From a virus (taxonomy: Duplodnaviria; Caudoviricetes): 62,973 nucleotides of DNA. The translations under genes were made by a program, and so were the position numbers. The notes beneath the pieces were generated by a model, which was given only the letters and a program-made list of their open reading frames with translations, was not told where the DNA came from and did no database searches. Position 1 is the stretch's first letter. Every line of letters starts with the position of its first letter. The stretch spans positions 1 to 62,973 of the IMG/VR virus record IMGVR_UViG_3300036761_000576, one strand, 5' to 3'. Positions 14,339 through 54,603 of this stretch are shown one piece after another.

Positions 14339-14487
14339 CAGAGTCTCCTTCGGTCGTTGCGACGGTAGATGACCTCGAGGAACAGCGCCAACGCGGCGAC
14401 AACGATCCCGACCACGCCGAACACCAGAACCGCCTCGGGGTCGAGCAACAGTGCCAGGACCGTGATGCCGACCAGGAAGTAGCTCAT
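14338..14487 (-). CDS. Small membrane protein
   Basis: Hydrophobic, ATGA-coupled to the giant gene. Confidence 0.55.
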   Translation of the reverse strand: MSYFLVGITVLALLLDPEAVLVFGVVGIVVAALALFLEVIYRRNDRRRL

Positions 14488-39411: not shown

Positions 39412-40218
39412 TCAAGCCCTCGTCGCAACTACGCGCTGATGTTTGTCAATGGCCACGATCCGAGCGGAGAGCACATCGCCGGTAGCATCGATTGGGGTGG
39501 ACAGCCAGACCAATCCCGCCGTGGCCGAGGCCGCAGCGCCCGCGTTGATGGGAGTCAAGGTGCCGGCGAGGTAACCCACGGCTTGCGCTTTCGCTCGTCC
39601 GACCGCGCCAAGTTGAATTCCCGTCGTCAGCGCAGCAGCACCCACCGCATTGGCGGTTCCAAGCGCCACCGTGAAGCCGTTGTAGAGGCTCGCGGCCCCG
39701 ACGACCGTCACGGTGCCAAAGGCGTTGTAGAACCCGCCGTAGAGGCTCGCCAGGCCTATTGCCGAGGCCGTCGGTGCGATTACCAGAGGGATTTGCGTGA
39801 ACAGCGCCCCCATGCCGATCGCCTTGAAAAACGCGCCATCGGCCGCGATCTTGAGTGGGATCTGCACGGCCCCAAAGCCGATCGCCGAGACCGTGGGCGC
39901 CGCCGCCAGGTTGATGCCGGTGGTGATCGCGCCAGCACCGATGGCCGACGTAACCGCGTTGGCATTGAGGATCGAGAACGAGTTGTAGCCAATGCCAGAC
40001 GCCGTCCCCGCCGCCGCCAAATTGATCGCCGTCAACAATGACGGCGTGTTGGCAGTGGCACTCGCCGCGGGGACATTGCTGGCAAGGTAGATCGGGACGT
40101 AGAGGGGGTTGGCCCCGGCCGTAGCCGAGGCCGTTGCCACTGCAACGCAGCGAATCAGCGCCGTCAGTGCTGCGAACGGCGTCGCCGACGCCGTTCCCGC
40201 TCCGACCATGTCGGTCAT
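39412..40218 (-). CDS. Ala/Gly/Thr-rich repetitive fibre protein
   Basis: ~20-aa quasi-repeats (A.G.A.L.T.I.L). Confidence 0.65.
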   Translation of the reverse strand: MTDMVGAGTASATPFAALTALIRCVAVATASATAGANPLYVPIYLASNVPAASATANTPSLLTAINLAAAGTASGIGYNSFSILNANAVTSAIGAGAITTGINLAAAPTVSAIGFGAVQIPLKIAADGAFFKAIGMGALFTQIPLVIAPTASAIGLASLYGGFYNAFGTVTVVGAASLYNGFTVALGTANAVGAAALTTGIQLGAVGRAKAQAVGYLAGTLTPINAGAAASATAGLVWLSTPIDATGDVLSARIVAIDKHQRVVATRA

Positions 40219-40225
40219 GGCGAAC

Positions 40226-40660
40226 CTACGCGAACGTCATCGTGAAGCTGCCCGCCGTGAAGCTCGGCGCTGCGTCGCCGTTATTGATGGTCTTGTTCGC
40301 TTGCAGCGCGCCCTCGAACAGCATGTTGCCGGCCGAGGCAGCATCCATGATGGCCCACGAAACAGCCGTGCCCCAGTTCGCCGTTGGCGCGGGGAAGGTG
40401 ATCGCCACCGCGTTACTGATGACGCCGGACGTACCGCTCGAGGCGCCCGTGGTATTGCCGTGCGTGCCGTTGAAGTTGGTATCGTTGACGGTCACCGCCA
40501 CGCGGGCATAGGAGCCGCCCGTGACTTCCGTGCCGCCGCCGGCATCGGACGGGGCCACGGTGAACAGGGCGTAATACAGCGTTGCAGGCTTGCTGTAGGA
40601 GGTCGCCCGGAAAAGGTGGTCGGCGATCTTGTTTTCCAGAAAGTCGGTCATCGAGGACAT
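40226..40660 (-). CDS. Tail-fibre-associated structural protein
   Basis: MTDFLEN...LY.ALFT..P.D.GGGTEV.GGSYARV...FP..T.NWG; AAGGAG RBS. Confidence 0.8.
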   Translation of the reverse strand: MSSMTDFLENKIADHLFRATSYSKPATLYYALFTVAPSDAGGGTEVTGGSYARVAVTVNDTNFNGTHGNTTGASSGTSGVISNAVAITFPAPTANWGTAVSWAIMDAASAGNMLFEGALQANKTINNGDAAPSFTAGSFTMTFA

Positions 40661-40681
40661 GCCATTTTCTCCTTGGGGAAA

Positions 40682-40697
40682 AGGCACTCCTGCGCCC
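40682..40697 (-). promoter_or_regulatory. AGGA-loop RNA hairpin, candidate CsrA site
   Basis: GGGCGC-AGGA-GTGCCT, 22 nt upstream of the start. Confidence 0.55.
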
Positions 40698-40733
40698 GGG
40701 GGTAGCGCCGCTCATGCGGCGCATGGGGAACAA

Positions 40734-41063
40734 CTAGGCCAACACGTTGAGGTTGGCAGACCGAGCTACGGTCTGCACTCTGCCGCCAACGTGGTACAGC
40801 GTGATTCGTCCTTCGTAGCGCCCAACCGCGAGCGAGTCCAGGCCGCCGAACGGCCACACGAAACGAACATAGCCGCCGGTGAATGGGTTTTCCGGCGCAC
40901 CTGGCACCGTCAACAAGACCGTGATCGTGCCTGGCATTCGCACCAGCATCGCCGCGCTTGAGACATCGGTCAGGTCGATCGGCAGCGAAGTATCGCCGTC
41001 GACCAGGGCGAAGCGGAGATCGGGCAGCGTGTCGCCCTTCACCACGTCGATAATTGAACTCAT
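40734..41063 (-). CDS. BppU-N-like structural protein
   Basis: KGDTLP.L...L.D...IDLT...G.V...W...G.Y. Confidence 0.7.
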   Translation of the reverse strand: MSSIIDVVKGDTLPDLRFALVDGDTSLPIDLTDVSSAAMLVRMPGTITVLLTVPGAPENPFTGGYVRFVWPFGGLDSLAVGRYEGRITLYHVGGRVQTVARSANLNVLA

Positions 41064-41671
41064 GCTTTGCTCCCTTGGCCAAAGACGGAGGTGCGGCGCT
41101 CGCGGGCCCTGGTGATGGCGTTCGCCGCCACCGCGGCATACGCCAGCCCTTGCTGCGGATCCGCCCAGATCGTTCCGCGCATCAGCAGCAGCCGAGCCTT
41201 GGCCCCAGAACACAGCGCGTCGTAGTAGTCGTTGAACAGGAAATCAGGCCCCTGCGTCGAGTCACGTGTCGGGCCCAGGATGACGGTGAGAATGAGTTGC
41301 GTCGTCACTGTCGGTTGCGGCAAAACGCAGAATTCTTCCGGCTGCATTTGCGTGACCGCCTCGGGTGTGCCGGCAAGACCCAACCGCCAGCCGTGGAACA
41401 GGCGATCGCACGTCTCTGGCGTGAGCACGCCCAGCTCTCTCCCCGCCACCTGAGCCTCGACGATCTGGTAGACACGCGTGCCAGCGTCGGCCTCGAGCGG
41501 ATAGGACACCAGCCCCGGGGTCAGGAAATAGGCCGGCTGGACCTCTTGCCAAATCTTGCTCTCGGCACAGAAGTCGATCGCCGTGTCGCGGATCGCCTGA
41601 ATAGCGATCGGCGGAGGACAGGCCGCAACCTCTGGTTGCACGCTCGGCAGAAATAGAGTCCAGTCTTTCAC
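41060..41671 (-). CDS. Head-tail adaptor/ring paralogue 4
   Basis: W..FLP...PEV..CP...IWQE...PTRDS..GPDFLF.DYY. Confidence 0.8.
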   Translation of the reverse strand: MKDWTLFLPSVQPEVAACPPPIAIQAIRDTAIDFCAESKIWQEVQPAYFLTPGLVSYPLEADAGTRVYQIVEAQVAGRELGVLTPETCDRLFHGWRLGLAGTPEAVTQMQPEEFCVLPQPTVTTQLILTVILGPTRDSTQGPDFLFNDYYDALCSGAKARLLLMRGTIWADPQQGLAYAAVAANAITRARERRTSVFGQGSKA

Positions 41672-42291
41672 GCCGCGTTCCCCGCTCCACGCAGCTCGAA
41701 TACGTTCTGGTTGCGGTCTTTGGCATCACGTGCATCCTTGCCGAACATCATCGTGTAGACCGCCGCCTGTTGGGGATTCGACCACTTCGCACCGGCCATC
41801 AGCATCAGCGTGGCCTTTGCTTTGGCGCAGATCGTCTCGTAGTAGTCGGCGAACAAGAAGTCGGGTCCGTCGATCGAATCGCGCGTGGGCTGCAAGGCCA
41901 CGGTCAAGATCAGGGACGAACTGCTCGTTGGTTGCGGGATCACTGAGAACTTGTCCGTCTGCACCTGTGAGACAGCTTCGGGTCTCGCCACCACGCCGTT
42001 ACGCCAGCCGTAGAACAGCCGATCCGCCGTTTCCGGAGCGATGACCGCCAATTCCCGGCTGGAAATCTGCGCCTCGACAATCCGCGATACACGGGATCCG
42101 GCCGTCACCACGAAGGCGATCAATACCGGGGTCGAAGTGACGGTGTAGGGCGCTTGCGTCTCCTGCCAGATTTCCGACTCGGTGCAGAAGCGGATGACCG
42201 CGTCCCGAATCGCCCAGGTGGCGAGCGGCAGCGGGCACGCCTCGACCTCGGGCAGCACGTTGGGAAGGTAAGACGTCCACGGCGTTGTCAT
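41668..42291 (-). CDS. Head-tail adaptor/ring paralogue 3
   Basis: Same motif set. Confidence 0.8.
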   Translation of the reverse strand: MTTPWTSYLPNVLPEVEACPLPLATWAIRDAVIRFCTESEIWQETQAPYTVTSTPVLIAFVVTAGSRVSRIVEAQISSRELAVIAPETADRLFYGWRNGVVARPEAVSQVQTDKFSVIPQPTSSSSLILTVALQPTRDSIDGPDFLFADYYETICAKAKATLMLMAGAKWSNPQQAAVYTMMFGKDARDAKDRNQNVFELRGAGNAA

Positions 42292-42920
42292 AGGAATTGC
42301 CCTCGCACTCGCGTCACTGCTCGTCCAAACGCGCGGTTTCTACGAGAGCGCGCCTGCACCAGTTGATCGGCCGCCATCTCGCCGTAGATCGCGGCCAGGC
42401 GCGGATTTGCCCACTCTGCTTCGTTCATCAGCATCAACCTGGACTTAGCACCCAGACAGATCGTTTCGTAGTAGTCGTCGAACAAGAAGTCCGGGCCATC
42501 AATGGCATCGCGCGTCGGCTGGAGAGCCACCATCAGCAGCAAGGACGTGGTGGCAACAGGTTGCGGCACGACACTGAATGCATCGGGCCCGATCTGCGTC
42601 ACCGCTTCGATCGTGCCGGTCCGTCCGGTTCTCCAATTCTGGTAGACCTCGTCGCAACGCTCTGGCGTCAGGATGTCGAGTTCCAGGCCATTGACCTGCG
42701 CCGCCATGATCTGTGCCACGCGCGACCCGGTCGCCGTTACAAACTCGTAACTGAGCGGGGTGGACGTAATCGTGTATGGCGCTTGCGTCTCCTGCCAGAT
42801 CTTCGTGTCGGCCAGGAATTTGATCGCCGTTTCCCGTACCGCCCATTGCGCCACCAACATCGGGCACGTTTCGACCTCGGGCAAGATGCCGGGCAGGAAA
42901 GACGTCCAGTTGGCTGCCAT
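42288..42920 (-). CDS. Head-tail adaptor/ring paralogue 2
   Basis: Same motif set; start MAANWTSFLP by TAATG coupling. Confidence 0.8.
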   Translation of the reverse strand: MAANWTSFLPGILPEVETCPMLVAQWAVRETAIKFLADTKIWQETQAPYTITSTPLSYEFVTATGSRVAQIMAAQVNGLELDILTPERCDEVYQNWRTGRTGTIEAVTQIGPDAFSVVPQPVATTSLLLMVALQPTRDAIDGPDFLFDDYYETICLGAKSRLMLMNEAEWANPRLAAIYGEMAADQLVQARSRRNRAFGRAVTRVRGQFL

Positions 42921-43531
42921 TACGCCTTCTTGCGCACGAAGACCGACTTGTTGCGCTCCCGCGCTTCTTGCGAGCGGAGATGAGCCGTCGCCGCATAGAT
43001 CGCTCCCTGTTGGGGATTGGCCCATTCCGCTTCCGGCATGAGCATCAACCGCGACTTAGCACCCGCAGCTAGGTCTTCGTAGTAATCGTCGAACAGGAAG
43101 TCGGGCCCCTGGGTCGAATCGCGGGTGGGCTGCAAGGCCACGGTCAGAATGAGCGAGGCAGTTCCCGTCGGCCGTGGAACGACCGCAAATTTGGTCGTCT
43201 CGACCTGCGCCACGGTGTCGGGCGTGCCCGTGATCCCGTTGCGCCAACCGTAGAACAAGCGGTCAAGGCTCTCTGGCGTAAGCACGGTAATCTGACGTGC
43301 AGAAATTTGTGCCTGGACGATCTTCGCCACGCGAGACCCTGACGTCGTGACGAAATCGTAGGTGATCGGACTCGACGTCAGGTTGTAGGGCGTCTGCGTT
43401 TCCTGCCAGATCAGGCTGTCGACACAGAAGCGAATCGCGGTATCGCGCACGGCCCACAACGCCAGCACCAAGGGACAGGTGCTCACTTCCGGCAGCACAT
43501 CAGGCAGAAAGGTCGACCAGTCTTTGCTCAT
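42920..43531 (-). CDS. Head-tail adaptor/ring paralogue 1
   Basis: Same motif set. Confidence 0.8.
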   Translation of the reverse strand: MSKDWSTFLPDVLPEVSTCPLVLALWAVRDTAIRFCVDSLIWQETQTPYNLTSSPITYDFVTTSGSRVAKIVQAQISARQITVLTPESLDRLFYGWRNGITGTPDTVAQVETTKFAVVPRPTGTASLILTVALQPTRDSTQGPDFLFDDYYEDLAAGAKSRLMLMPEAEWANPQQGAIYAATAHLRSQEARERNKSVFVRKKA

Positions 43532-44148
43532 TGCTTCACCATTTCACTGGCAGCACCAGTGCCGAGTGATGTTTCAAAAGCGGCGCGGAAGAGTGCGGCT
43601 CGCGGCGTCACCACAAACTCGTCGTCCTTCGATTCTGCGCGGAAGATCACGTAGGACTCCAAGGCGGGCTCGTACTGCTCGTTGAGGGGGATGGTGCTGT
43701 TGATGGTCAGAGCGGTGGTGTTCAACTCTGTCCACGAAGCGTCGAGGAGCTGGCCGGCGAGGCTCTTGGGATAGACGTAGAACCTGTTGTTCGGTTGCTT
43801 GCTGGCATCAGCCGGAAAGCGCATCCAGTGCACCGCGGGCCCGGCTGGGTCCGTGCGCCAGCCGGCCCGGTAGGCACGAAAGGTGTCGAAGTCGGCGTAA
43901 GTGATGGCGCCCCCGTTCTGGACCCCATAGACGTCGATCACGAACCAGCCATTCGGGACAATCGTTTGCTCGACGCCCGCCACACAGGTTATGGCACCCG
44001 TGACCGTGAACAGATCAGGCCGCAGCACGCAGGTCTCGCGCAGTCCATCTAGCGCATAGGCCAACAGTTCAGGATCGGGATAGCGAACCTTGTCGGTGTC
44101 GTTCAGCGTCGGCCGCAGCCGGTCGAGAACGGCCTGGAACGTAGCCAT
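43528..44148 (-). CDS. Head-tail adaptor (DUF6682-like)
   Basis: LNDTDKVRY...LL.Y...LRPD; FYVYP; YVIFRAESKD.E. Confidence 0.75.
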   Translation of the reverse strand: MATFQAVLDRLRPTLNDTDKVRYPDPELLAYALDGLRETCVLRPDLFTVTGAITCVAGVEQTIVPNGWFVIDVYGVQNGGAITYADFDTFRAYRAGWRTDPAGPAVHWMRFPADASKQPNNRFYVYPKSLAGQLLDASWTELNTTALTINSTIPLNEQYEPALESYVIFRAESKDDEFVVTPRAALFRAAFETSLGTGAASEMVKQ

Positions 44149-44498
44149 CAGTCGTCAACCGTGGTCGCTTTCTTCGCCGCCTTGGCCGCGCGCGCTGCTG
44201 CCATGCGATCGGTCTTGATGGCCTCTACACCGTTGCTCCTGGTCTCGGCCGCCGTGCGCAACGCGGTATCGGCGTCGATCCGCGCTTGCACCGCTGCCGC
44301 CGCGGCCTCTGTCCTGATGTCGGAATAGGGCCTATAACCGGCGCCAATCGACAGAATGGCGTCGTAGTGTTGCTCGTCGGAAACCTCGGCCACGTAGTCC
44401 CCGAGTTCGTTCGGCAAGAAGTGGTAAAACTTGCCGCCATAGGTCATCTTGGTGCCGCCCTTGAACGGCGACACAGTCTGAATGAAACGCGCACGCAT
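44148..44498 (-). CDS. Hypothetical morphogenesis protein
   Basis: GGT...G..YHF.P...G..VAEV....H...LSI..GY. Confidence 0.75.
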   Translation of the reverse strand: MRARFIQTVSPFKGGTKMTYGGKFYHFLPNELGDYVAEVSDEQHYDAILSIGAGYRPYSDIRTEAAAAAVQARIDADTALRTAAETRSNGVEAIKTDRMAAARAAKAAKKATTVDD

Positions 44499-44514
44499 GG
44501 GCTACCTCATCCGT

Positions 44515-44544
44515 AAAAAATGGACCGACCAGAAGGCCAGTCCA
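44515..44544 (-). terminator. Intrinsic terminator after capsid/decoration genes
   Basis: TGGACTGGCC-TTCT-GGTCGGTCCA plus T6. Confidence 0.7.
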
Positions 44545-44563
44545 ATTACGTTACCAAGACCGC

Positions 44564-45097
44564 TTAGGCGCCGTACCGCGCTGCCCGATAGAAGAGCTGG
44601 AAGTCGATGCGCCTGATCGTTGCCGGATTGGTCGCCGCGGACGCCACAATGCCCAAACCGATCGAGCGATCCACCAAGGTGGAGGGCGCGATTTGCTGGA
44701 ATGTAGCCAGTGCGCAGCGCGTGTAGGCAGGAGCCTGCAACAGCGTGCTGCCAGAGGCGATGCCTTCCACCCCCACTGTCGCTAACACTCGACCCGCATC
44801 GCCGACCGTTCCCGTCATCAGACCGAGCTTGATGGTGATCGTCGGCGTGCCGTTAGAGTCGAAATCATCATTGGAAAGGATGAAATCGACCGGCACGTGG
44901 TCAGCAGGAAGCACCGCCAACTCGATTAAGTCGTTGATCGCCGGATTGACGCCGGACGCAAAGATGATCGTCCCGGTAACCTCCACCAGATCGCCCGCTT
45001 CGGTGGAGATTACCGACGAATGCCGAAGGGTCTGAATGCCCGTCAGTGCGACGGCGGTCGTCGAGCCCGTTATTTCATTGGTTGCGTAGTACGCCAT
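44564..45097 (-). CDS. Capsid decoration/cement protein, copy B
   Basis: Follows major capsid; closely similar to 45126..45650. Confidence 0.75.
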   Translation of the reverse strand: MAYYATNEITGSTTAVALTGIQTLRHSSVISTEAGDLVEVTGTIIFASGVNPAINDLIELAVLPADHVPVDFILSNDDFDSNGTPTITIKLGLMTGTVGDAGRVLATVGVEGIASGSTLLQAPAYTRCALATFQQIAPSTLVDRSIGLGIVASAATNPATIRRIDFQLFYRAARYGA

Positions 45098-45125
45098 TCG
45101 TTTTCTCCTTCAAGCCGCTGACTGC

Positions 45126-45650
45126 TTAGGCGCCGTACCGCGCTGCCCGATAGAAGAGCTGGAAGTCCAAGCGCCTGATGGTCGCCGGATTGGTCGGTGC
45201 CGCCACGATTCCTATGCCGATCGAGCGATCCGCGGTAGTGCTCGGCGCGATTTGCTGGAAGGTCGCCAGTGCGCAGCGGGTGTAAGCCGCCGCCTGCAAC
45301 AGCGTAGAACCGGAGGCGATGCCTTCCACCCCGACCGTGCCGATCGCGCGCCCAGCGTCACCCACCGCGCCCGTCATCAGACCGAGCTTGATGGTGATGA
45401 GGGCGGCACTGTCGAAGTCGTCGTTCGACAAGATGAAGTCGAGCGGCACGTGGTCGGCCGGCAGCACGGCCAGTTCGATCACATCATTGATCGCCAGGTT
45501 GACGCCGGACGCGAAGATGATCGTCCCGGTCACGGACTCGACATCGCCCGCTTCCGTGGAAATCACCGAAGAATGCCGGAGCGCCTGAATGCCCGTGAGA
45601 GCGGCGGCAGCCGTGCTGCCCGTGATCTCGTTCGTTGCGTAGTACGCCAT
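45126..45650 (-). CDS. Capsid decoration/cement protein, copy A
   Basis: NDVIELAVLPADHVP.D; immediately after major capsid. Confidence 0.75.
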   Translation of the reverse strand: MAYYATNEITGSTAAAALTGIQALRHSSVISTEAGDVESVTGTIIFASGVNLAINDVIELAVLPADHVPLDFILSNDDFDSAALITIKLGLMTGAVGDAGRAIGTVGVEGIASGSTLLQAAAYTRCALATFQQIAPSTTADRSIGIGIVAAPTNPATIRRLDFQLFYRAARYGA

Positions 45651-45723
45651 GATGAAACTCCTTTCGGTGCTGGAATGAAAACGGTCGCCCGAGAGCGACC
45701 GTTGCCGTCAGTACAACCCGAGA

Positions 45724-46833
45724 TCAGCCCGGATCGGCCGCTGCGGACTCGACCGCGATCACTCCGTAGTCCTTGGAGTTGAACGTGGTCTTCTTCATGC
45801 CGCAGATGGTGGACGTCGAGATCACGACCTGGTTGCCGTTGTCCCGCGTTTCCTCGTGCCAGTCGAAGCGCAGACCCGTCCCCGGTGAGCCGAAGGCGCA
45901 CACCGCCGCCTGTTCGCCCAGGAACAGCGACCGACTGGCGGCGAGGTTGGCGCCGGCCCCATAGTCGGTGAAGCGGATCACCGCCTTGTGCTGATGCAGG
46001 ACCACGTTGTTGTACATGGCGAGGCCGCCCTTGAAGATCGGGGAATCGAGGCCGGTCTTGGTCGCCGCCGCCTTCTGGATGTCGAGCCACTGGCCGGTCG
46101 ATGTTGACGTGCGCAGGTTGAACGCATCCCACGGCGTCATGCAGAGCACGTAATGCTCTTCGCCATCGACCATGATCGGCTGGATCTGCGGCGTGCCCTG
46201 CACGCCACCGCCCATCATGTTGGCCTTGGCCACCAAGCGGTCGATCGAGGCCAGAGAGAGCTTGTCGCCGACAACCAAAGTAGCCTTCGACGTGGCCGCA
46301 CCGGAATACAGGATGTGATCCGGAGAATCCGGCGCCACCAGCGAATTGTTGGCAAAGCCGGTGTAGGTCAGCGGAAAGATGTAGTCCGAATTGACGCCAC
46401 GCGCGCCAGACAGGTACATGAAGAACAGCTCATCGAACGCCCTGGCCCACAACTCCGATTCGCGCCGCTTGGCGATCTGGCGCAGATCGTACAGCGTTTT
46501 CTTGCGCGACATGCGTCCACCGGTGTTGACGCCGACCCGCAGTTGGTCGATGTAGACCTGGTCCGTGTAAAACTTTAGGTCCTCTTCTTGGCTTTCCAGC
46601 ACTTGATCGCCTTCGATCGGCTGCATCCGCAGTTGCACGGAGAGATCGTAGGTGATCTGTTCGCCAGCATCGCTCTCCAGTTGCGTGAGCACCTGGATTG
46701 GCATGGACGATGTTTCGCCAACGCCCATGAACTTCTTGTTGAAATACGACTTGCGGGCCATGTCTACGGCCAGCATTCCGCTGAACCGCTTGACAGCTTT
46801 CGGATCATTTAGACCGATGACAGTCTTTGCCAT
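45724..46833 (-). CDS. Major capsid protein (N4-gp56/DUF4043 family)
   Basis: LESDAGEQITYDLSVQL...IDQLR...GGRMSRK...GMKKTTFN.KDYGVI. Confidence 0.92.
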   Translation of the reverse strand: MAKTVIGLNDPKAVKRFSGMLAVDMARKSYFNKKFMGVGETSSMPIQVLTQLESDAGEQITYDLSVQLRMQPIEGDQVLESQEEDLKFYTDQVYIDQLRVGVNTGGRMSRKKTLYDLRQIAKRRESELWARAFDELFFMYLSGARGVNSDYIFPLTYTGFANNSLVAPDSPDHILYSGAATSKATLVVGDKLSLASIDRLVAKANMMGGGVQGTPQIQPIMVDGEEHYVLCMTPWDAFNLRTSTSTGQWLDIQKAAATKTGLDSPIFKGGLAMYNNVVLHQHKAVIRFTDYGAGANLAASRSLFLGEQAAVCAFGSPGTGLRFDWHEETRDNGNQVVISTSTICGMKKTTFNSKDYGVIAVESAAADPG

Positions 46834-46860
46834 GTGAGTGCTCCTTCGCTAGTGAACGAA

Positions 46861-46878
46861 GTCGCACTCCTGCGCGAC
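46861..46878 (-). promoter_or_regulatory. AGGA-loop RNA hairpin, candidate CsrA site
   Basis: GTCGCGC-AGGA-GTGCGAC, 28 nt upstream of the capsid start. Confidence 0.6.
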
Positions 46879-46896
46879 ACCAAGCCTCTTTAGAGG

Positions 46897-47091
46897 CTAC
46901 TCGGGCCTGCCCAATTGCCTACGCACAAACGACGTGGGCGGTGGTATTGCGGCAAGCCGCCGAATTTGAACCTCCTTCATCGCCTCGAAACTGAGACGAG
47001 TTTTCTGCCCCGACTTGCTTTCTACGCGGACGATGACACGACCGGAGTCGATGTCTACCCCCTCGCCCACGCGCAAATCGAGCTTTAGCAC
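46897..47091 (-). CDS. csrA: CsrA/RsmA-like RNA-binding protein
   Basis: ML.L..RVGE...I....V.V.V...SG...RL...A.KEV.I.R aligns with the CsrA pattern. Confidence 0.7.
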   Translation of the reverse strand: MLKLDLRVGEGVDIDSGRVIVRVESKSGQKTRLSFEAMKEVQIRRLAAIPPPTSFVRRQLGRPE

Positions 47092-47095
47092 CGAC

Positions 47096-47989
47096 TTACG
47101 CTCTCGTTCTCAGATACGCTTCCTCATCAGCGGAACCAAACTTGGCCAGCTCATTTTCAAGCGGGATGCCCGTGAGCTTGTCGAGATGCGCGAAGCGATC
47201 GCCGCCGACATCTGGCAAATCCGCCGCCGGGATCTCGCCCAACGTCTTCGGTGCCATCGCACGCGCCTTGTCCTCGCCCGCCTTCTTGGGTGGTGTGTCG
47301 TCTTTCACAACGGTTGCGCCAGGCGGGTTCTGGCCGTATTCCATCATCACTCGCTTGTGTGAGCGTTCGAGCAGCTCATCGCCGGTAAGATCATCAACGC
47401 CGTCTATCTGCCCTTCCAGAAGCACCGCCTGCATCAGACCTGCATACAGCAAACTTCCTTGTTTGTACTGTCCATGCGTCTTGAAAAAACGCTTCTGTTC
47501 ATGTGCCCAGATTCCATCCTGAACAGCCTTGTTGATGGCCTCCGCATTCACGAATTGACTCTGTGCGACGGAGATATCGCGCATGATCTTGTGATAGGTA
47601 GCTTCTTCCAACTCACCTTCTTCGTATTTCTTGACCGTCGCTGCTGCTTCGGCGTCGTAATCGCGGGCTTCTCCGGTAGGCATGTTCAGCACAAATCCCC
47701 GGTCCTTAGCTTCTGCATCGACCGCGTGGTCAACCTTGGCCGTGGACTCTGCTTTGGCCTTGTCGGTTGCGACTTTTGCGTCAGCCGGTTCGGCCTCGCC
47801 CGCATCGCCGGCTGCGGCAGCTTCTACCGCCTCTTCTTCGTCATCAATTACGTCACCCTCGGCCGCCAACGCAGCCTTCTTCTCCGCGTCGTCTATCTGC
47901 GCGGCGTCGGTCGTTGTGTCTTCGAGTGCCGCGCGTTCCTCTGGGGTAAGTAGCGAGACTTCCGCGTCCGACATACCTTCAATTGACAT
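47096..47989 (-). CDS. Capsid scaffolding protein
   Basis: Acidic; LTPEERAAL start and PKTL..IPAA...F..LD.L.G...E..LA end; upstream of capsid. Confidence 0.75.
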   Translation of the reverse strand: MSIEGMSDAEVSLLTPEERAALEDTTTDAAQIDDAEKKAALAAEGDVIDDEEEAVEAAAAGDAGEAEPADAKVATDKAKAESTAKVDHAVDAEAKDRGFVLNMPTGEARDYDAEAAATVKKYEEGELEEATYHKIMRDISVAQSQFVNAEAINKAVQDGIWAHEQKRFFKTHGQYKQGSLLYAGLMQAVLLEGQIDGVDDLTGDELLERSHKRVMMEYGQNPPGATVVKDDTPPKKAGEDKARAMAPKTLGEIPAADLPDVGGDRFAHLDKLTGIPLENELAKFGSADEEAYLRTRA

Positions 47990-48007
47990 GCTTTTTCTCC
48001 TTAAAAG

Positions 48008-48127
48008 TCAGCCCAACCAGTCGCGCATGAACTCGCCTAAGAAGTGGATCGAAGCCGCTGCGCCAACATAGACGGCGACCATGACCCACAGTAGCGACAG
48101 CGCATGGAGCGTTACCGGATCGATCAT
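48008..48127 (-). CDS. Small membrane peptide (39 aa)
   Basis: ATGA coupling; hydrophobic. Confidence 0.4.
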   Translation of the reverse strand: MIDPVTLHALSLLWVMVAVYVGAAASIHFLGEFMRDWLG

Positions 48128-48768
48128 CTCTTGTGATCGTTCTTGTGCTTGTTTTGTTGCGATTGGCGCCCCATCGACCCAAGCTGGAGACCGTAGTGCA
48201 TCAATTTCTCTTCTATTTTTAGAATATGGTGGTAAGGAACCGCCTGGATCAATATCGGATTACTAGCGACAACGACCCCGCCGGCATCCGAGTCGACGGC
48301 GATAAAATCGAGTGACACGTTGTAGGCCTTGCCGGGCGCCCCAGCTCCAGTTTTGACAAGACCGGCAATGTCATTCAGGCCTCTCTGGAACACCGCCAAT
48401 CCATTTGCGTCGATTCCGGCGAAGGTATTGGCGCCCTTGTAAAACAGGCGCCCATCTTGCTTTTTGATTTCGCAGTACATCGTCAGGTCGTTTGCCATCG
48501 CTTGTTCCTTTGGTTGCCCTACCGTTACCCTGCGCACCTTGCCGTCACCTATCCGCTCCCACACTGCGCGAGTGATCCCCATTCCCCGCAGGGATTCGTC
48601 TATGGCCCGGTAGATTTCTGGCGTGAAAGTGCCTTGTGCGCACGAAATGTGAGCTTCTTCGCCGTGGAAGCAACACGTGCAAGAAAACGCGAAAGAGTCG
48701 CCATAATCTCCGACGCCACCGTGGTAGCGGAGTAGCGCGACCAGCGGCTCGACGCTAATCCGCCCCAC
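48124..48768 (-). CDS. Hypothetical protein, possibly two-domain or with an internal start
   Basis: 214-aa ORF; in-frame AAGGA...ATG at MANDLT. Confidence 0.55.
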   Translation of the reverse strand: MGRISVEPLVALLRYHGGVGDYGDSFAFSCTCCFHGEEAHISCAQGTFTPEIYRAIDESLRGMGITRAVWERIGDGKVRRVTVGQPKEQAMANDLTMYCEIKKQDGRLFYKGANTFAGIDANGLAVFQRGLNDIAGLVKTGAGAPGKAYNVSLDFIAVDSDAGGVVVASNPILIQAVPYHHILKIEEKLMHYGLQLGSMGRQSQQNKHKNDHKR

Positions 48769-48778
48769 GGGTCAAACA

Positions 48779-49228
48779 TCAAGGGTTTGGGACCGGCGCG
48801 CCAGCGGCAACGCCCATGCTGACGGTCTCGCCGGCAACGACTTCGATGTCGATGGTCCCGGATACCGGCTTGATACCGTCACCCATGTCCGCATCGGCGG
48901 TTGCGCTGATTTGCACCGAGCCCACCTTGCCGACCGGCAGCACGTCACATGAGAGCGAGTCGGCCGAAGGCACAACCGTTGCCACCGTTTCATCCGAGGA
49001 AGCCCACACGGCAGCACCGTCAATGGTTGCCGGGTTGCCGAACTTGTCGACCGGGGCGACAAAGAGAGTTACCTTGAAATCATCTCGCAGCAGCATTTTC
49101 GTTACTCCTTTGAATGTGCTACCCCTATAGGCAGCGTTGAACGTCAACTCACCGTTATCCATCTCTGGATAGAGACAGACGCGCGGCCCGTTGAAATCTA
49201 TGACGACGTGTACTTTCGGCAGCTTCAT
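48779..49228 (-). CDS. Ig-like domain protein
   Basis: PVDKFGNPA...WASSDETVATV...G...ISATAD; strong internal RBS before MLLRDD. Confidence 0.7.
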   Translation of the reverse strand: MKLPKVHVVIDFNGPRVCLYPEMDNGELTFNAAYRGSTFKGVTKMLLRDDFKVTLFVAPVDKFGNPATIDGAAVWASSDETVATVVPSADSLSCDVLPVGKVGSVQISATADADMGDGIKPVSGTIDIEVVAGETVSMGVAAGAPVPNP

Positions 49229-49248
49229 GCGCCGCCTCCTGGTTGAGA

Positions 49249-51132
49249 TCAAAGCAGTGTCAGGAGCACTTTGAGTGCTTCGACGTTGTGTTCCAGCACG
49301 GCAATCTTCTCTAGCAGCGCATCGCGTTCTTCCTTGAGCGCCGCGATCTCAGTCGCCGCGGCGAGCGCCGATCCACTGTCGACGCTCGCCGGAGCGTACT
49401 TCTCGGCGGGGGGTATCTGTTTCTGCTTCTTCGGTGGCTTCGCCTTCTCCGCCTTGGCATCGGCCTCGGCCAGTCGTTTGGCGATGTCGTAGGTCGTGTC
49501 CCGCGACAGCCCAAGCTCGAGCGCGTGTCGCGGCTTGCCGCCAGGTATCGCTCGGCCATCGCGTTTGCGCGGGGTCGGCTCTCCGCCACCGCCTGCTGGT
49601 GCGGGCTCAGGCAGAGGCGGCGGAATTACGGCCGGCGCTGCCTCGTCGAAGATGATCGGCGACCAATCGTCAGTCGCCTCTTCTTCCTCGATCGGCTCGT
49701 CTATTCCTTGCTCGACGTAGTCGAAGTAGACCGGCGCATCGAGCAGCGGTCCCGTCGTCCAATCGTCGGTGGACTCTTCATCCTCGATCGGATCGGCATC
49801 CGTCGTTTGGATGACGTCGATGGACGGATCGAAGATCGTCGGCCACCAGTCGTCGGTGGCTTCTTCTTCGTCAAGCAGCTCCTCGAAGACGAAGGCGATC
49901 GGGTCAATCGCCGGGATCGGGGCCGGCTCGAATATTTGCGCAGCGAAGCCTTCGTCGTCCTCTGGCTCGTCACCTTCGTCGGCAGCGGTAGCCGGCGGCG
50001 CAAACTCGTCGAAGACCGGATCCTGCCTCCAATCTTCCGTCCCCTCTTCCTCATCCAGCTCTTCGCCGCTGGTCGTGGAGATCGCGTCGACCGTGGAGAA
50101 ATCGTCTGGAAGCGCCGCTATCCAGTCATCGGCAGCCTCATCGCCTTCATCTTCGTCGGCGATCGTGGACGCGATCGGGTCGTTCAGATCGGGCGGGGTG
50201 CCTTGCGCCCAATCTTCCGTGCTTTCTTCTTCGTCCTGTTCGTCACTAAGCGTTGCTACGACAACATCCTGAACCGCAGCGACTACGCCCTCGACTCTGC
50301 CGGTCCAGTCTTCCGCTGTTTCTTCCGCCTCATCTTCATCGGCCGAAACACAGGCCATGAAGTCAGGTTGCGGGCCCGCAGGATCGATCCAGACGCTTTG
50401 CGCGTCCTCGGTGGACTCTTCCTCATCCTGCTCATCGCCCAACGTCGTGCTGATGACGTCCTGCGCCGCCGCGACGACCTGCTCGACCCAACCTACCCAA
50501 TCTTCGGTTGCCTCGTCTTCGTCGGCATCGTCGCCAATGGTCGCGGTTACGAAATCAGCCGCGGCGCCAGCAACGTCCTCGACGCGGCCGATCCAATCTT
50601 CGGTCGCTTCTTCGTCTTCTGCCGGATCCTCCTGTGGCGCGGCGATTGCGTCGACGGTCGATAACGGATCGAAAACGGCGGCCGTAGCGTCTTCGGACTC
50701 GCTTTCGGCGTCAAACTCGTCATCACCAATGCTGGCAACGATGGGGAACGGATCGAAGATCGGCGACTGCGCCCAATCTTCGGTGCTTTCCTCCTCGTCG
50801 ATCTCGTCGTTGACGAAAGCGGCGATGGCATCTACCGTCGACCACGGATCGAATAGCTGCGGCGTCCAGGCGTCGGTTTCTTCCGGTTCTGGCTCTTCTT
50901 CGGCCTCGGCTACAGGAGGAATGTAGTCAACGGCCGCCGCAACGGCTGCGTCGAAGATCAAACTACCCTGGCATGGTTCCGTTTCCTCTTCTTCTTGCCA
51001 CTCCGTATCATCTGGATAGGTGTGGAAGAGGCTGCCTTCCGCTGACGCCGGATCCGGTATCGGTACACCGAGTTGGATCCATGTGACCCGCCCTACGCGC
51101 GGATAGTAGAGCGACAGCAGCGCGAGAAGCAT
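49249..51132 (-). CDS. Highly acidic repeat protein
   Basis: ~15 units of ~30 aa, core DEEE(S/A)T(E/D)DW. Confidence 0.8.
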   Translation of the reverse strand: MLLALLSLYYPRVGRVTWIQLGVPIPDPASAEGSLFHTYPDDTEWQEEEETEPCQGSLIFDAAVAAAVDYIPPVAEAEEEPEPEETDAWTPQLFDPWSTVDAIAAFVNDEIDEEESTEDWAQSPIFDPFPIVASIGDDEFDAESESEDATAAVFDPLSTVDAIAAPQEDPAEDEEATEDWIGRVEDVAGAAADFVTATIGDDADEDEATEDWVGWVEQVVAAAQDVISTTLGDEQDEEESTEDAQSVWIDPAGPQPDFMACVSADEDEAEETAEDWTGRVEGVVAAVQDVVVATLSDEQDEEESTEDWAQGTPPDLNDPIASTIADEDEGDEAADDWIAALPDDFSTVDAISTTSGEELDEEEGTEDWRQDPVFDEFAPPATAADEGDEPEDDEGFAAQIFEPAPIPAIDPIAFVFEELLDEEEATDDWWPTIFDPSIDVIQTTDADPIEDEESTDDWTTGPLLDAPVYFDYVEQGIDEPIEEEEATDDWSPIIFDEAAPAVIPPPLPEPAPAGGGGEPTPRKRDGRAIPGGKPRHALELGLSRDTTYDIAKRLAEADAKAEKAKPPKKQKQIPPAEKYAPASVDSGSALAAATEIAALKEERDALLEKIAVLEHNVEALKVLLTLL

Positions 51133-51160
51133 GGGTTTATGCCCTCACGCTAGATGAAAC

Positions 51161-51832
51161 TCAGGCCGGAACTTCTTCCCACATCAGCCGAGAAGTGACG
51201 CTGTGCGTGGTCACTGACGTTGTGTTGAGCAGCGCCAGCACGCCACCGGGCGGCACAATCAGCGAGCCATCAAAAAACTGCACGCCGACGACGCTCGGGG
51301 TAGGCGTGGCTACGGCAACCGTAGTCGTGAGCAGTCCGGACGCCACGGGGAAGTCGGCACCCTCGAACACCACGAGACTGTTGGTCAAGCCGGTGAGGGC
51401 AACGCCTCCGGGGAACGCCTTCGCCGAAGAGCCGGCGGCGACGAGGGTACGTCGGTTGAACGGCGCGCTGCCCGTCGTGATCGCGCCATTACCGCCAGAC
51501 GCCGCCCAGACGAAGCCCCCTAGATCGACCGACGTAATGTTATTGATGCGATCCGTCAAACTCGCTTGGAGGATCACGAGATTGACCAGTGACGTCGACG
51601 GATTCCACACGCCAACAATGGGTGTCGTCGTCGACGTCAGGGTAATCGTGTTGGCAGACAGGGCCGTGACGCCGGAACCAGTGCTGTACAGTCCACCGCG
51701 CAAAGTTTGCTCAAAATACCTGCCGTGCAGTTGGCTTGAAATCAGTTCCGCGGAGCGGCCCTGACGCAGCGTTTGAACCGCGCCGTCTTGAAGTTGCTGG
51801 ACGCCAACTTGCCCTTGGATGGGGATGCCCAT
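51161..51832 (-). CDS. Putative virion structural protein
   Basis: HGRYFE...WNP..S.VNLV...IVPPGG...WEEVP. Confidence 0.7.
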   Translation of the reverse strand: MGIPIQGQVGVQQLQDGAVQTLRQGRSAELISSQLHGRYFEQTLRGGLYSTGSGVTALSANTITLTSTTTPIVGVWNPSTSLVNLVILQASLTDRINNITSVDLGGFVWAASGGNGAITTGSAPFNRRTLVAAGSSAKAFPGGVALTGLTNSLVVFEGADFPVASGLLTTTVAVATPTPSVVGVQFFDGSLIVPPGGVLALLNTTSVTTHSVTSRLMWEEVPA

Positions 51833-51841
51833 GTGTTTCTC

Positions 51842-52141
51842 CTAGTTGAAAATGTCTATTGCAGCAGCCGGATCGTACATTGTCTGTCCCGACATGAGCG
51901 ACAACTGAAGGTTCATTAGGCGCAGTTGCCCGAGAATCTGTGACAACACTGTTAGCAGCGCGTCGGAGTGGACCTGTAGATTACCACTCAGGTCTACATT
52001 CGCCAACGCGGACGGCAGGGATGCGTCGCCCAGCACCACCCGCTGCCGCTCCACCACGACGCCGTCACTGCGCGTGATCTCGCTGACCTCGATCTTTTTG
52101 CCACTGCTGTCCGGGGATACCTGGACATACTGATCTGCCAT
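51842..52141 (-). CDS. Hypothetical structural protein
   Basis: VQVSPDSSGKKI...ERQRVV.GD. Confidence 0.7.
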   Translation of the reverse strand: MADQYVQVSPDSSGKKIEVSEITRSDGVVVERQRVVLGDASLPSALANVDLSGNLQVHSDALLTVLSQILGQLRLMNLQLSLMSGQTMYDPAAAIDIFN

Positions 52142-52144
52142 CGA

Positions 52145-53104
52145 CTACTCCCGCGCCGTCCCGCGCACACGCAGGTCAGCGAAATTTGCGATTGGATCAA
52201 CGATTGCCGAGGCCACTGTCCGAGTGCGAGTAACCGCGCCCTGTGCCGGTGTCACAAGTTCAGTCCATGAGTCGCGCACCGTCGTCCCTTCCAGCAAGTT
52301 CAAGTCGAAATAGGTGTCCAGATTTACCGCTTGCAGGCGCACATTCGCTGTCATGCTGCTCCCTGCGGCTGGTTTGTTGGTTGCGCTAAGCAACACTTCA
52401 AACTGTTGCGCACTTGGGGCAAGGCTTACCTGAGCGCCCCAAAAGTAAACGCCGGAAACGTTGTCCCCGGTAATGTTTTTTGTGTAGAAGTAGTCGGCCG
52501 CCGCCCCTCCGACCTGAGTCCGCACCGTCCATGTGCACCGATACCACCCGCTTCCAACTGCCGTCATGGAAGCCGATCCCTTGCCGGACGTGGCATAGAT
52601 GCCATTGGTCAAGTCGAATGTGGCGGTTGCCAAAAAAGAGCCAGCATCCATTGTGGCAAGGCTGCATATATCGTACTCGGCAGCTTTGGCGTACATTGAG
52701 TTGGTGTAGTAGGTGCTCCCTGTTTTCGTTACGTCCTGCCTGAGATAGTAACCGCCGGCTGAAAAAGTATTGTCCGGGCATACCTTATCTGCGGTCATGG
52801 AACCATCAGGAGCAACAGCAACATTGGAATAGACAACCGTGTGGTTTGCGAGCCACACAGCATCGTCAAACGCATTTGAAGCGGTCAGCAAATTGACCGC
52901 AGCGGCAGGATTCTCCGAGGAATAGATGTAATCCGCATCGTCCGCAGCGGCCTCGTCAATCATCGCGTACAGATCGACTCCGGTACTCGGCAACCACCCG
53001 CCCGCCGCAATGTCAGATGCAGGACGAGCGTACTGGTAGACGGCCGCAGCGACCGGGTGCGAAGCAAGAGGCGCACCGGCGAGCGGCCTATAGCCGAGCG
53101 CCAT
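52145..53104 (-). CDS. Fibre/spike protein with carbohydrate-binding-like domain
   Basis: NLL..SN.F...W...APDG..TADK...YT.S.YAK...GWYRC...WGAQ. Confidence 0.7.
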   Translation of the reverse strand: MALGYRPLAGAPLASHPVAAAVYQYARPASDIAAGGWLPSTGVDLYAMIDEAAADDADYIYSSENPAAAVNLLTASNAFDDAVWLANHTVVYSNVAVAPDGSMTADKVCPDNTFSAGGYYLRQDVTKTGSTYYTNSMYAKAAEYDICSLATMDAGSFLATATFDLTNGIYATSGKGSASMTAVGSGWYRCTWTVRTQVGGAAADYFYTKNITGDNVSGVYFWGAQVSLAPSAQQFEVLLSATNKPAAGSSMTANVRLQAVNLDTYFDLNLLEGTTVRDSWTELVTPAQGAVTRTRTVASAIVDPIANFADLRVRGTARE

Positions 53105-53491
53105 TTACTCCGCCGTCGCGGCGATCTTCGCCTTGATCGCGTTTACTACCTGCGCCGTAGTGCGGGCCGTGAGCGCCGGTATCACCGCCGCGCGGAGAAT
53201 ATTCACTTCGTCCAACACGACGAGCGCGAGAGCACGAATCAGCCGCTCTTCCATGCTGCCACCGATCAACTGGCCGTTGTCGATGCCCGCCGTTGCCGCA
53301 GTCTTGGCTTGTTGCGCCCCAAAGGTCGCATCGGAGGCAGCAGACCCATCGAAGGCATCAATCGTCGGCTGCGCCGCTGCCTGCAATGAAGGCGGCGTAA
53401 CTTCTCCTGCGATGGATACCCCAGAGATCACAACGCCTGCCGCAACAATCGCGGTATGCAAACGCGCTAGATTGGTTTCGGTAATTGCCAT
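53105..53491 (-). CDS. Fibre-associated small protein
   Basis: Coupled to the upstream fibre gene. Confidence 0.65.
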   Translation of the reverse strand: MAITETNLARLHTAIVAAGVVISGVSIAGEVTPPSLQAAAQPTIDAFDGSAASDATFGAQQAKTAATAGIDNGQLIGGSMEERLIRALALVVLDEVNILRAAVIPALTARTTAQVVNAIKAKIAATAE

Positions 53492-54603
53492 TACTGAGGC
53501 ACCCCAATAAATATACTGATAAAAGCAAAGGTGCTGACAAGCGCCGATGACTCTTGCTCAAGCGCCTGAATGAAACTGAAACCAAGCGGTAGAACAGAAT
53601 GACCACCCCCTCCAAAAGCAAATGCAAGGGCGGTGGCGGCATTATTTATCGTTTTTGTTGGCGAATCAAACGCAGTAGTGGAGTTAATCCCCATGCCCGT
53701 AGCTTGGGCGCCATTTGCAGCGGTAGTGTTGTTGATTCGCGTCGCCACTGCCGCAGCCTTGCTGAATGAACATATGATCTGGCACCTTGCGGTAGACGTA
53801 TTGTTCCATGATCGTACCGTTGCACTATTGTACGTGTGGGATGTGTTATCGGTAACTGTGCAGCGCCTAAGAACCGTGTTGTAAATGTTGTCTACAAGAC
53901 GATTCTTCTCACTGTCCTCCGTGGTCGTCGTTGCCGTCGTGTAGAACGTGCCCAACAACAAGCGCGTCTTGTCTCCGGATTTGCAGTAGCGCCCGTCCTG
54001 AAACGTCACCGCTGTTGCGCGTGCCGTGTCGCTCGTCCATGCCAGCAATTCGGTATTCAGCGCCCCCGCATTCAAGAAACCGAACACATCGTATGGCTTG
54101 GCACTGGTAAGCGTGCCGAGTGCCAACGTCACTTCGCTGAACGTAATGCATTTCCAAATGTTGCCGTCCCACAAATTGATGATGTTGTGGACGTAGGGCG
54201 TATAGAAAATACTCGTCTTTGCGGCCTGATCCGTCGTCGAAACTGGGACGCCGGTTTCGAGAGTCAACCGCCCGCCCGGAGTGATCGCCTGCGCGGCAAG
54301 GTTCGCGGTATCCGCAATGTTGCTGACCAGATCGACGAACAGGTTTTCCGCGCCGCTGCAACTGATCGCAGCGCCCGTGCTGGAATCTGTCCGCGTCGTG
54401 CGTGCGAACAAAGTCCCGGCGTGCGTGTACGTCCCGTACCCCGTCTCCCACGCCGTCCCGTCCTCGATCACATACGCGAACAACTTCGCATCATCACCCG
54501 CCGCGAACGTCTGAAATCCAGACGCAGCCGCGCCGAGCGTAAGCGTGCCAGTGCCGGTCGTCGCAGAGGCGACCTTGATCCGGTCCTTCCAAGCGAGCGG
54601 CAC
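53491..54603 (-). CDS. Fibre protein
   Basis: DRIK...TTGTGTLTLG...GFQ; WETG.GTY; GGRLTL.TG.PV. Confidence 0.75.
   Translation of the reverse strand: MPLAWKDRIKVASATTGTGTLTLGAAASGFQTFAAGDDAKLFAYVIEDGTAWETGYGTYTHAGTLFARTTRTDSSTGAAISCSGAENLFVDLVSNIADTANLAAQAITPGGRLTLETGVPVSTTDQAAKTSIFYTPYVHNIINLWDGNIWKCITFSEVTLALGTLTSAKPYDVFGFLNAGALNTELLAWTSDTARATAVTFQDGRYCKSGDKTRLLLGTFYTTATTTTEDSEKNRLVDNIYNTVLRRCTVTDNTSHTYNSATVRSWNNTSTARCQIICSFSKAAAVATRINNTTAANGAQATGMGINSTTAFDSPTKTINNAATALAFAFGGGGHSVLPLGFSFIQALEQESSALVSTFAFISIFIGVPQ

Follow-up and report, generated by a model that had tools for sequence, protein, structure and literature searches.

A CsrA-like gene and a conserved family of leader hairpins in the head-gene module of a Bcep22/GP4-type podophage

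Introduction

Regulators of the CsrA/RsmA/RsmE family act on short hairpins in mRNA leaders near the Shine-Dalgarno sequence (SD), and GGA is, to our knowledge, the core of every known CsrA site. The RNA-contact residues of CsrA are Arg44 together with Leu2, Leu4, Arg6, and Arg7. Here, a diverged CsrA-like gene and a family of leader hairpins that are its candidate operators are described from a podophage of the Bcep22/GP4 type. The phage is represented by a complete virus record (IMG/VR record IMGVR_UViG_3300036761_000576; 62,973 bp), the whole of which was analyzed and is referred to below as the window. The csrA-like open reading frame (ORF), the hairpins, and the putative target genes are all read on the minus strand of the window.

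A catalogue of 30 csrA-bearing phages left the role of the gene open (PMC7366521). The gene has been annotated as a moron in phage JC1 (PMC9144972), in phage CSP3 (PMC10269572), and, within a review, in phage DC1 (PMC8310193). Knock-down of csrA in one coliphage resulted in small plaques, and according to the authors of that work a role in the phage life cycle had previously been untested (PMC11879866). The literature found on phage csrA consisted of these catalogues, annotations, and one knock-down phenotype, and no paper describing the hairpin or the switch was found; in print, phage csrA genes are only presumed host-manipulating "moron" genes. Burkholderia cepacia and B. cenocepacia, which are hosts of related phages, are reported in the catalogue to be without a chromosomal csrA (PMC7366521).

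In Escherichia coli, CsrA activates ymdA, and binding at two leader sites is proposed to destabilize a structure hiding the ribosome-binding site (Renda et al., 2020; PMC7492729). The Com protein of phage Mu activates mom translation by binding a hairpin beside a translation-inhibition structure, which exposes the start signals (PMC6483171).

Compared with CsrA, RsmA, and RsmE, including RsmE-hcnA (2jpp), the phage protein has the same fold (root-mean-square deviation [rmsd] of 0.6-0.9 A over 45 residues) and the same modelled interleaved dimer. Its putative target is likewise a short mRNA-leader hairpin near the SD in which a C-G pair closes an A-N-G..A loop, and sites may likewise occur as pairs tens of nucleotides apart. 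The phage system differs from CsrA/RsmE in several respects: the tetraloop is ANGA and GGA is not required; strand 1 is different; the Arg44 position is variable; the C-terminal helix is not predicted; the gene is phage-borne with its candidate targets in its own gene cluster; the window has no sponge-like cluster of sites; and the hairpin is predicted to compete with a helix that sequesters the ribosome site.

Two hairpins, distal and proximal, before a gp80-like fibre gene would follow the logic described for ymdA. Unlike ymdA, where the sites are canonical GGA sites and the regulator is chromosomal and global, the phage carries a defined, conserved hairpin family and encodes the regulator beside the target, and it is activation that we infer here. 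As with Mu Com and mom, the gene directly before the candidate target codes for some 60 aa, and a small hairpin adjoins a start-site-sequestering structure, in this case a predicted one. A Com-family zinc ribbon occupies the same pre-capsid slot in one relative (L081), which is without the ANGA hairpin family. The phage protein differs from Com, a zinc finger with a DNA-modification target, in its CsrA fold and its candidate virion-gene targets. The phage P22 scaffolding protein controls itself post-transcriptionally, and RNA-phage coat protein acts through operator hairpins. The present locus would share with both the setting of morphogenesis proteins at translation by a small protein-RNA hairpin interaction; the proteins and operators differ, and the sign of coat-protein control is pure repression.

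The CsrA-Like Protein and Its Distribution

The CsrA-like gene lies between a scaffold-position gene and the major capsid gene. The four genes under study were as follows:

46897-47091, minus strand: CsrA-like gene, 64 aa, GTG start; starts 4 nt beyond the stop codon of the scaffold-like gene
47096-47989, minus strand: scaffold-position gene, directly upstream of the CsrA-like gene; phrog_8246 (expectation value, E=3e-25)
45724-46833, minus strand: major capsid protein gene (target 1), ATG at 46833; PF13252, 199 bits; phrog_334, E=2e-106
40226-40660, minus strand: gp80-like fibre I/head protein gene (target 2); PF23140 "Podophage GP4 fiber I protein gp80", 144 bits; phrog_240

A preliminary description of this DNA, made from the sequence alone, had placed a CsrA-like ORF directly before the capsid gene, and its coordinates were right; the ORF ends 63 nt before the capsid ATG. 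No second CsrA-like ORF was found within the window. The scaffold-position gene holds the position of the gene preceding csrA in phages JC1 and GP4. The gp80-like gene starts in frame at ATG 40660, 8 nt past an AAGGAG.

By sequence, predicted fold, and modelled dimer, the ORF at 46897-47091 is a real, diverged CsrA-family protein. It matched phrog_8397 "CsrA-like regulator" at E=1.3e-11, and its homologues from JC1 (37.6 bits), GP4 (29.8 bits), and relative L003 (27.6 bits) scored above the Pfam CsrA cut-off. A profile built from 45 phage homologues found both RsmE (2jpp; E=7.5e-9) and the CsrA of E. coli (2e-7). The structure prediction that the preliminary description had proposed as a check returned the CsrA fold: the AlphaFold (AF2) monomer model had a predicted local distance difference test score (pLDDT) of 87.6 and the five-stranded beta fold of the CsrA monomer, and in a Foldseek search of the PDB the top 13 matches were all CsrA, RsmE, or RsmA chains (rmsd 0.6-1.4 A, TMt 0.57-0.85). 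Foldseek E-values ranged from 6e-3 to 7e-2, none reaching 1e-3, because the protein is so short. The model lacked the Com zinc-ribbon fold, and no C-terminal helix was predicted in it.

Modelled as two copies, the protein formed an interleaved CsrA-type homodimer with a score of 0.75, against 0.00 for the best control. The mark set for this score was attained by 20 of 30 solved homodimers and by one of 23 solved single chains. Three dimer runs agreed in 100% of contacts with pLDDT of at least 88; residues 2-6 (strand 1) contacted 31-35 of the partner, and residues 43-46 contacted 11-14. This pass may reflect likeness alone, since CsrA dimers have already been solved. Strand 1 of the family reads L-x-L-D-L-R/K, and window residues L2, L4, R7, and R45 aligned to CsrA RNA-contact positions.

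Relatives were represented by 82 loci, namely the best 80 of 597 capsid relatives in IMG/VR and phages GP4 and JC1. In 65 of the 82, the family profile matched the ORF adjoining the capsid gene on its upstream side. Four more loci (L013, L029, L030, and L063) had divergent copies scoring 13.6-14.9 bits, and L010 was doubtful at 2.7 bits. Nine of the 82 were without such an ORF (L041, L049-L051, L065, L069, L070, L072, and L081), and three (L053, L057, and L074) were too short for presence of the gene to be judged. Because at least 69 of the 82 loci have a gene of this family flanked by scaffold and capsid, gene order across these relatives marks csrA as a core head-module gene and not a "moron".

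In L081, the slot between scaffold and capsid genes was filled by a 58-aa zinc ribbon of the Mu Com type (L081:2102-2278, plus strand; PF10122, 33.1 bits against a cut-off of 22.9). PF10122 was found in the slot in L081 only. A different Cys-rich ORF of 61 aa, with no Pfam match, occupied the same slot in L070 (L070:1871-2056). In these two relatives one translational regulator may have been swapped for another of unrelated fold.

Two side observations concern the ends of this interval. A hairpin, AGCCUC-UAAA-GAGGCU (46883-46898, minus strand), overlaps the stop codon of the CsrA-like gene; it does not belong to the ANGA family and has no U-tract behind it. In some relatives the capsid start at the aligned position was not ATG: ATT in L003 (2501), ATC in L077 (~2498), and TTG in L031 and L047 (~2498). 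These may be an extra layer of translational control or sequencing errors.

A Conserved Hairpin Family in the Leaders

Three hairpins of one family were found in the window:

46861-46878, minus strand: capsid-leader switch hairpin, GUCGCGC-AGGA-GUGCGAC; -11.4 kcal/mol alone; 24.6 bits, E=0.0008 with model R1 (see below), the best match in the window
40682-40697, minus strand: proximal (switch) hairpin of the gp80-like leader, GGGCGC-AGGA-GUGCCU; -8.7 kcal/mol alone; R1 24.4 bits, E=0.0009
40705-40722, minus strand: distal (anchor) hairpin of the gp80-like leader, GCGCCGC-AUGA-GCGGCGC; R1 21.4 bits, E=0.005

Two of these contain the 12-mer GCGCAGGAGTGC, which occurs in exactly two copies (46864-46875 and 40684-40695), both on the minus strand. 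With up to one mismatch, five matches were found against a shuffle mean of 0.82, and none of 100 shuffles reached five. The outer pairs differ between the copies and still pair. The 3' ends of the hairpins lie 27 nt and 21 nt upstream of ATGs 46833 and 40660, each of which has its own AAGGAG (46841-46846 for capsid, 40669-40674 for the gp80-like gene).

The preliminary description had reported both copies as AGGA-loop stems with differing but pairing outer bases near starts with their own AAGGAG, and this was borne out, since both fold alone. Its inventory was incomplete, however, as the distal hairpin of the tandem pair was missed. A third, looser site that it listed, CACGAGAAGGAGTGCGTG, is indeed present before ATG 31110 but is no member of the family: it presents the gene's own SD in a 10-nt loop and has no R1 match.

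Among relatives, the capsid-leader element had the consensus GCGCANGAGUGC, in which a G-C pair and a C-G closing pair hold the tetraloop A-N-G-A; a minority had 5-nt loops (e.g., AGAAA and AGGAC). The second loop base of 42 proximal tetraloops was U in 18, G in 12, A in 10, and C in 2, and the two AGGA loops and one AUGA loop of the window fall within this range. In these alignments, A-N-G-A closed by C-G is conserved and GGA is not the conserved determinant, contrary to the preliminary description, which had put weight on a GGA loop. CANGAG, with no pairing required, was present in 46 of 68 unique capsid leaders. At least three flanking base pairs accompanied 53 of 59 leader occurrences of CANGAG, vs. 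45 of 450 occurrences elsewhere in the same loci. Of the pairs in 50 aligned hairpins, 6:17 showed 11 double changes and 5:18 showed 14, and 8:15 was GU in 41, GC in 5, and UG in 4. The three pairs beside the closing pair were required for selection; evidential weight is therefore limited to the outer pairs and to the types of pair.

A covariance model, R1, was built from these 50 aligned hairpins with the window left out; it scores the 5-nt-loop variants poorly. Exactly three R1 matches at E<0.01 were found in the window (46859-46880, 40679-40700, and 40703-40724), all intergenic and on the minus strand, and the next-best match had E=0.77. The second and third form the tandem pair before the gp80-like gene. 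With three matches in 62,973 bp, all in mRNA leaders, there was no sponge-like cluster of sites. In 65 related loci, 63 of 63 R1 matches were on the coding strand. Sixteen matches were outside the seed alignment; some of them preceded the gene that follows capsid (L015, L004, L020, and L008), in its leader, and others were at the start of the scaffold gene (described below). Among complete relatives, four of five records had R1 matches at E<=1, and the best match in GP4 was its capsid-leader hairpin.

R1 matches were found in 40 of 56 loci with the csrA-like gene and in none of seven representative loci without it. Judged by comparison of these genomes, the leaders carry a conserved hairpin element that is specific to one strand and travels with the csrA-like gene. 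In gp80-like leaders of 80 loci, most from other phage types, the hairpin stood just before the gene only in L102, a locus from the contig that also carries capsid relative L005.

All 11 tandem leaders kept the GC-ANGA-G core in the distal hairpin, with a loop-to-loop spacing of 20-35 nt. The distal hairpins paired worse with the segment preceding the AUG than did the proximal hairpins (-6.9 vs. -11.3 kcal/mol in these leaders), so such pairing does not explain the conservation of the distal loop.

In one subclade the hairpin lies at the start of the scaffold gene. In three of these relatives its loop AGGAG, 8-9 nt from the ATG, is the SD itself (L013:1038-1059, L019:1172-1193, and L024:1139-1160), and in three others the hairpin abuts the GGAG SD of the scaffold gene (L036:1176-1197, L046:1154-1175, and L066:1177-1198). 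These scaffold-start hairpins may serve autoregulation of the scaffold-csrA pair. The scaffold-position gene of the window has a plain AAGGAG leader.

No Rfam family was found at E<=1 in either leader (within 40000-47500). No sigma-70-like promoter was found in 40000-48200, and the hairpins were absent from the seven terminator-like sites called. Scans for 4-7 nt GA-containing loops and for GGAG..CACUC..AUG gave nothing further convincing in the late leaders of the window. Loose CANGAG hairpins with a stem of at least 3 bp were not enriched in the whole window (nine observed, 8.1 expected). Elsewhere, two near-identical 18-nt AGGA-loop hairpin sequences, TGT(C/A)GGCAGGAGCC(G/T)GCA, were seen on the plus strand at 31041-31058 and 44722-44739; they are antisense to virion genes 30223-31179 and 44564-45097 and match R1 poorly.

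A Competing Closed Fold

In context, the predicted minimum free energy (MFE) fold of both window leaders was a closed form and not the small hairpin. The closed folds were as follows:

46828-46879, minus strand: closed (sequestering) fold of the capsid leader; 46864-46869 pairs with 46836-46841 (GAGUGC:GCACUC), just past the SD; 46875-46879 (5' arm) pairs with 46828-46832 across the AUG; inner anti-SD hairpin 46855-46861:46844-46850
40654-40691, minus strand: closed fold of the gp80-like leader; AGGAGUGCC:GGCAUGUCCU, including the AUG; CUUUUCC pairs with the SD; MFE structure

The MFE of 46825-46900 (minus strand) was -32.9 kcal/mol (z=-4.1), and none of 200 shuffles was as stable. Forcing the small hairpin cost 7.1-7.8 kcal/mol in the capsid leader and 5.3 kcal/mol in the gp80-like leader. 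In the unconstrained ensemble of the gp80-like leader, the closing-pair probability was 0.997 for the distal hairpin and 0.0 for the proximal one. The leaders of GP4 and JC1 had the same closed fold in other letters.

The same design was seen across 53 leaders. The closed form was the MFE structure in 50 of them, and pairing of the loop and 3' arm with the leader's own pre-AUG segment averaged -10.4 kcal/mol, against -7.3 for segments of other leaders and -5.0 for shuffled segments (permutation p<1e-4); a few hairpins, including those of the window, were mis-picked in this run, a bias that runs against the result. Forcing the hairpin cost 5.9 kcal/mol on average and raised the unpaired probability of positions -13..+3 from 0.26 to 0.54. 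Of 18 leaders with N=U in the loop, 12 had CUC abutting the AUG, so that AUGA pairs with UCAU, compared with 5 of 24 with another N (Fisher p=0.004, uncorrected for relatedness). On these predicted structures, the proximal hairpin is exclusive with a second, covarying helix that buries the SD and the start codon.

Proposed Mechanism and Alternatives

The favoured reading, to which a probability of roughly 0.45 is assigned, is activation: a dimer of the CsrA-like protein would capture the hairpin and open the ribosome sites of the capsid and fibre genes. We infer both the binding of this hairpin by the CsrA-like protein and the sign of the effect. The 64-aa protein would be a phage-owned translational regulator of head genes, with the small hairpin as operator, singly in the capsid leader and as a tandem pair before the gp80-like gene. 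The hairpin nearest each gene would be one of two exclusive folds. In the other, the loop and 3' arm would pair with bases between the SD and the AUG, giving a more stable structure with the ribosome-binding site buried. The protein would be supplied by the adjacent upstream gene, in probable coupling with the scaffold gene. Its dimer would capture the hairpin form, aided by the constitutive distal hairpin where present. The ribosome site would be held open, and translation of capsid and fibre would rise as the protein accumulates.

A covarying helix burying the SD and AUG indicates activation at least as much as repression. A protein reader of the hairpin is likely, and several leader features fit a dimer with two RNA surfaces. 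A phage-internal target fits better than interference with a host Csr system, because hosts of related phages are reported to be without a chromosomal csrA. Of the phage translational circuit on capsid and fibre genes that the preliminary description had put forward, the circuit as such stands as the best reading. Its GGA and bridging details do not: simple bridging of hairpin and SD by a repressor takes no account of the covarying helix, burying SD and AUG, with which the hairpin is predicted to compete.

What is new here is a candidate regulator of CsrA fold whose operator would not depend on GGA and whose role, probably an activating one, would lie within the phage. The analysis adds a conserved candidate operator beside the gene, a two-state leader design with mutational predictions, and evidence for head-module membership, and a long-unexplained phage gene gains a concrete, testable target. 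If the reading is true, the CsrA fold can read a non-GGA tetraloop, a dedicated protein-RNA switch gates capsid translation in a widespread phage group, and the pair is a compact, orthogonal translational switch for synthetic biology.

Several points weigh against activation by this protein. All of the RNA structures are thermodynamic predictions. In longer context the forced hairpin opened the window ribosome sites modestly (from 0.31 to 0.44 and from 0.30 to 0.39), because the local anti-SD hairpin remains, and the seven leaders without the gene, with openness of 0.21-0.64, were not clearly more open. The window protein scored 24.8 bits (E=2.1e-5) with Pfam CsrA (PF02599), below the curated cut-off of 27. 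The CsrA Arg44 position was R or K in just 23 of 45 family members, and the first beta-strand has D5 and L6 at CsrA positions 5 and 6, which we take to be Thr5 and Arg6. Since GGA is not conserved, the known specificity of CsrA is not transferable to the phage family. On the best tree there were four changes per trait for gene and hairpin, and the two independent pairs on well-supported branches were too few for a sign test. Binding at the hairpins on or beside the scaffold SD would repress, and repression may accordingly be the general mode of the protein. Purified JC1 virions are reported to have yielded one peptide of the homologue (PMC9144972).

A wider version of the favoured reading gives the protein both signs. 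This diverged CsrA lineage would be a core morphogenesis regulator of a large podophage group, reading a GC-closed ANGA and not GGA. It would open the leader for capsid and fibre, and in some relatives would sit on the scaffold SD, turning down both scaffold and itself, so that one protein would set the scaffold:capsid:fibre ratio. This wider version is possible, on the doubtful side.

With the same protein-hairpin pair and the opposite sign, the dimer would be a classical repressor limiting capsid and fibre synthesis. From a hairpin 20-40 nt upstream of the start codon, perhaps with additional binding at the GGA within the SD, it would block the 30S subunit and could provide feedback setting the scaffold:capsid ratio. 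CsrA proteins mostly repress by bridging hairpin and SD, which is established knowledge and is also stated in PMC7492729. The hairpin carries or abuts the scaffold SD in six relatives, a geometry typical of repression, and the distance of about 26 nt from hairpin to SD in the capsid leader is like the tandem spacing of 20-35 nt. A repressor would, however, have no need of a conserved helix that covaries and hides the ribosome site even without the hairpin, and stabilizing the hairpin would necessarily free that site. The leader SDs do not share the hairpin loop motif, and the homologue in the same slot of L081 is of the Com activator type. Repression of capsid and fibre is less likely than activation but a serious rival to it.

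Alternatively, the leader RNA would switch on its own or would be an operator for some other factor, acting as a co-transcriptional timer or responding to temperature, upstream-ORF translation, or RNase. The CsrA-like protein would then act elsewhere, by manipulating host mRNA (the published "moron" view) or in a minor virion or assembly role. The two-fold design does work thermodynamically without a protein, key CsrA RNA-binding positions vary in the family, independent co-losses of gene and hairpin are too few, and the JC1 virion peptide would suit a virion role. Against this, the distal loop core is kept despite its worse ribosome-site pairing and calls for a sequence-specific reader, the spacing of tandem sites suits a two-surface dimer, and at least 69 of the 82 loci have the gene fixed in place beside its putative target. 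Host manipulation is further disfavoured by the report that some hosts are without a Csr system (PMC7366521). An RNA switch independent of the protein is considered unlikely.

That the repeated 12-mer arose by chance, or serves at the DNA level (for instance as a promoter, a terminator, or a palindrome bound by protein), is highly improbable: a genome of 62% G+C has many short G+C-rich inverted repeats and the loose CANGAG hairpins are not enriched window-wide, but no shuffle reached the observed number of 12-mer matches, the conserved G-U pairs (8:15) and the 63 of 63 coding-strand matches argue for RNA, no sigma-70-like promoter was found in 40000-48200, no terminator-like site called coincides with the hairpins, and strand bias and covariation already contradict this explanation.

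Late-Gene Order and Other Features of the Phage

The late genes of the window, all on the minus strand, followed this order:

58837-60276, minus strand: large terminase gene
55149-57815, minus strand: portal gene
between portal and scaffold-position genes, minus strand: several unassigned ORFs
then, minus strand: scaffold-position gene and CsrA-like ORF, located as above
45724-46833, minus strand: major capsid gene
downstream of capsid, minus strand: virion proteins, then four phrog_437 paralogues
40226-40660, minus strand: gp80-like fibre I gene

The DNA of the capsid gene was 65-67% identical to phages of Ralstonia, Burkholderia, Agrobacterium, and others, and no near-identical record was found in the phage collection by Megablast. 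About 6.5 kb of ORFs between the portal and scaffold-position genes (48124-54603, minus strand) had no counterpart at that place in GP4 and JC1; among them, a 627-aa ORF (49249-51132, minus strand) had no Pfam or PHROG match. The four tandem phrog_437 "virion structural protein" paralogues (~203-245 aa each; 41060-43531, minus strand) separate the capsid module from the gp80-like gene. A strong terminator-like hairpin, TGGACTGGCC-TTCT-GGTCGGTCCA followed by TTTTTT (44521-44544, minus strand), is sited past two virion genes downstream of capsid and is probably the end of a highly expressed capsid transcript. The window also contains a 4,681-aa ORF at 14484-28529 (minus strand). Among the data sets listed for the window sequence none was of RNA, and the six of DNA were sediment metagenomes.

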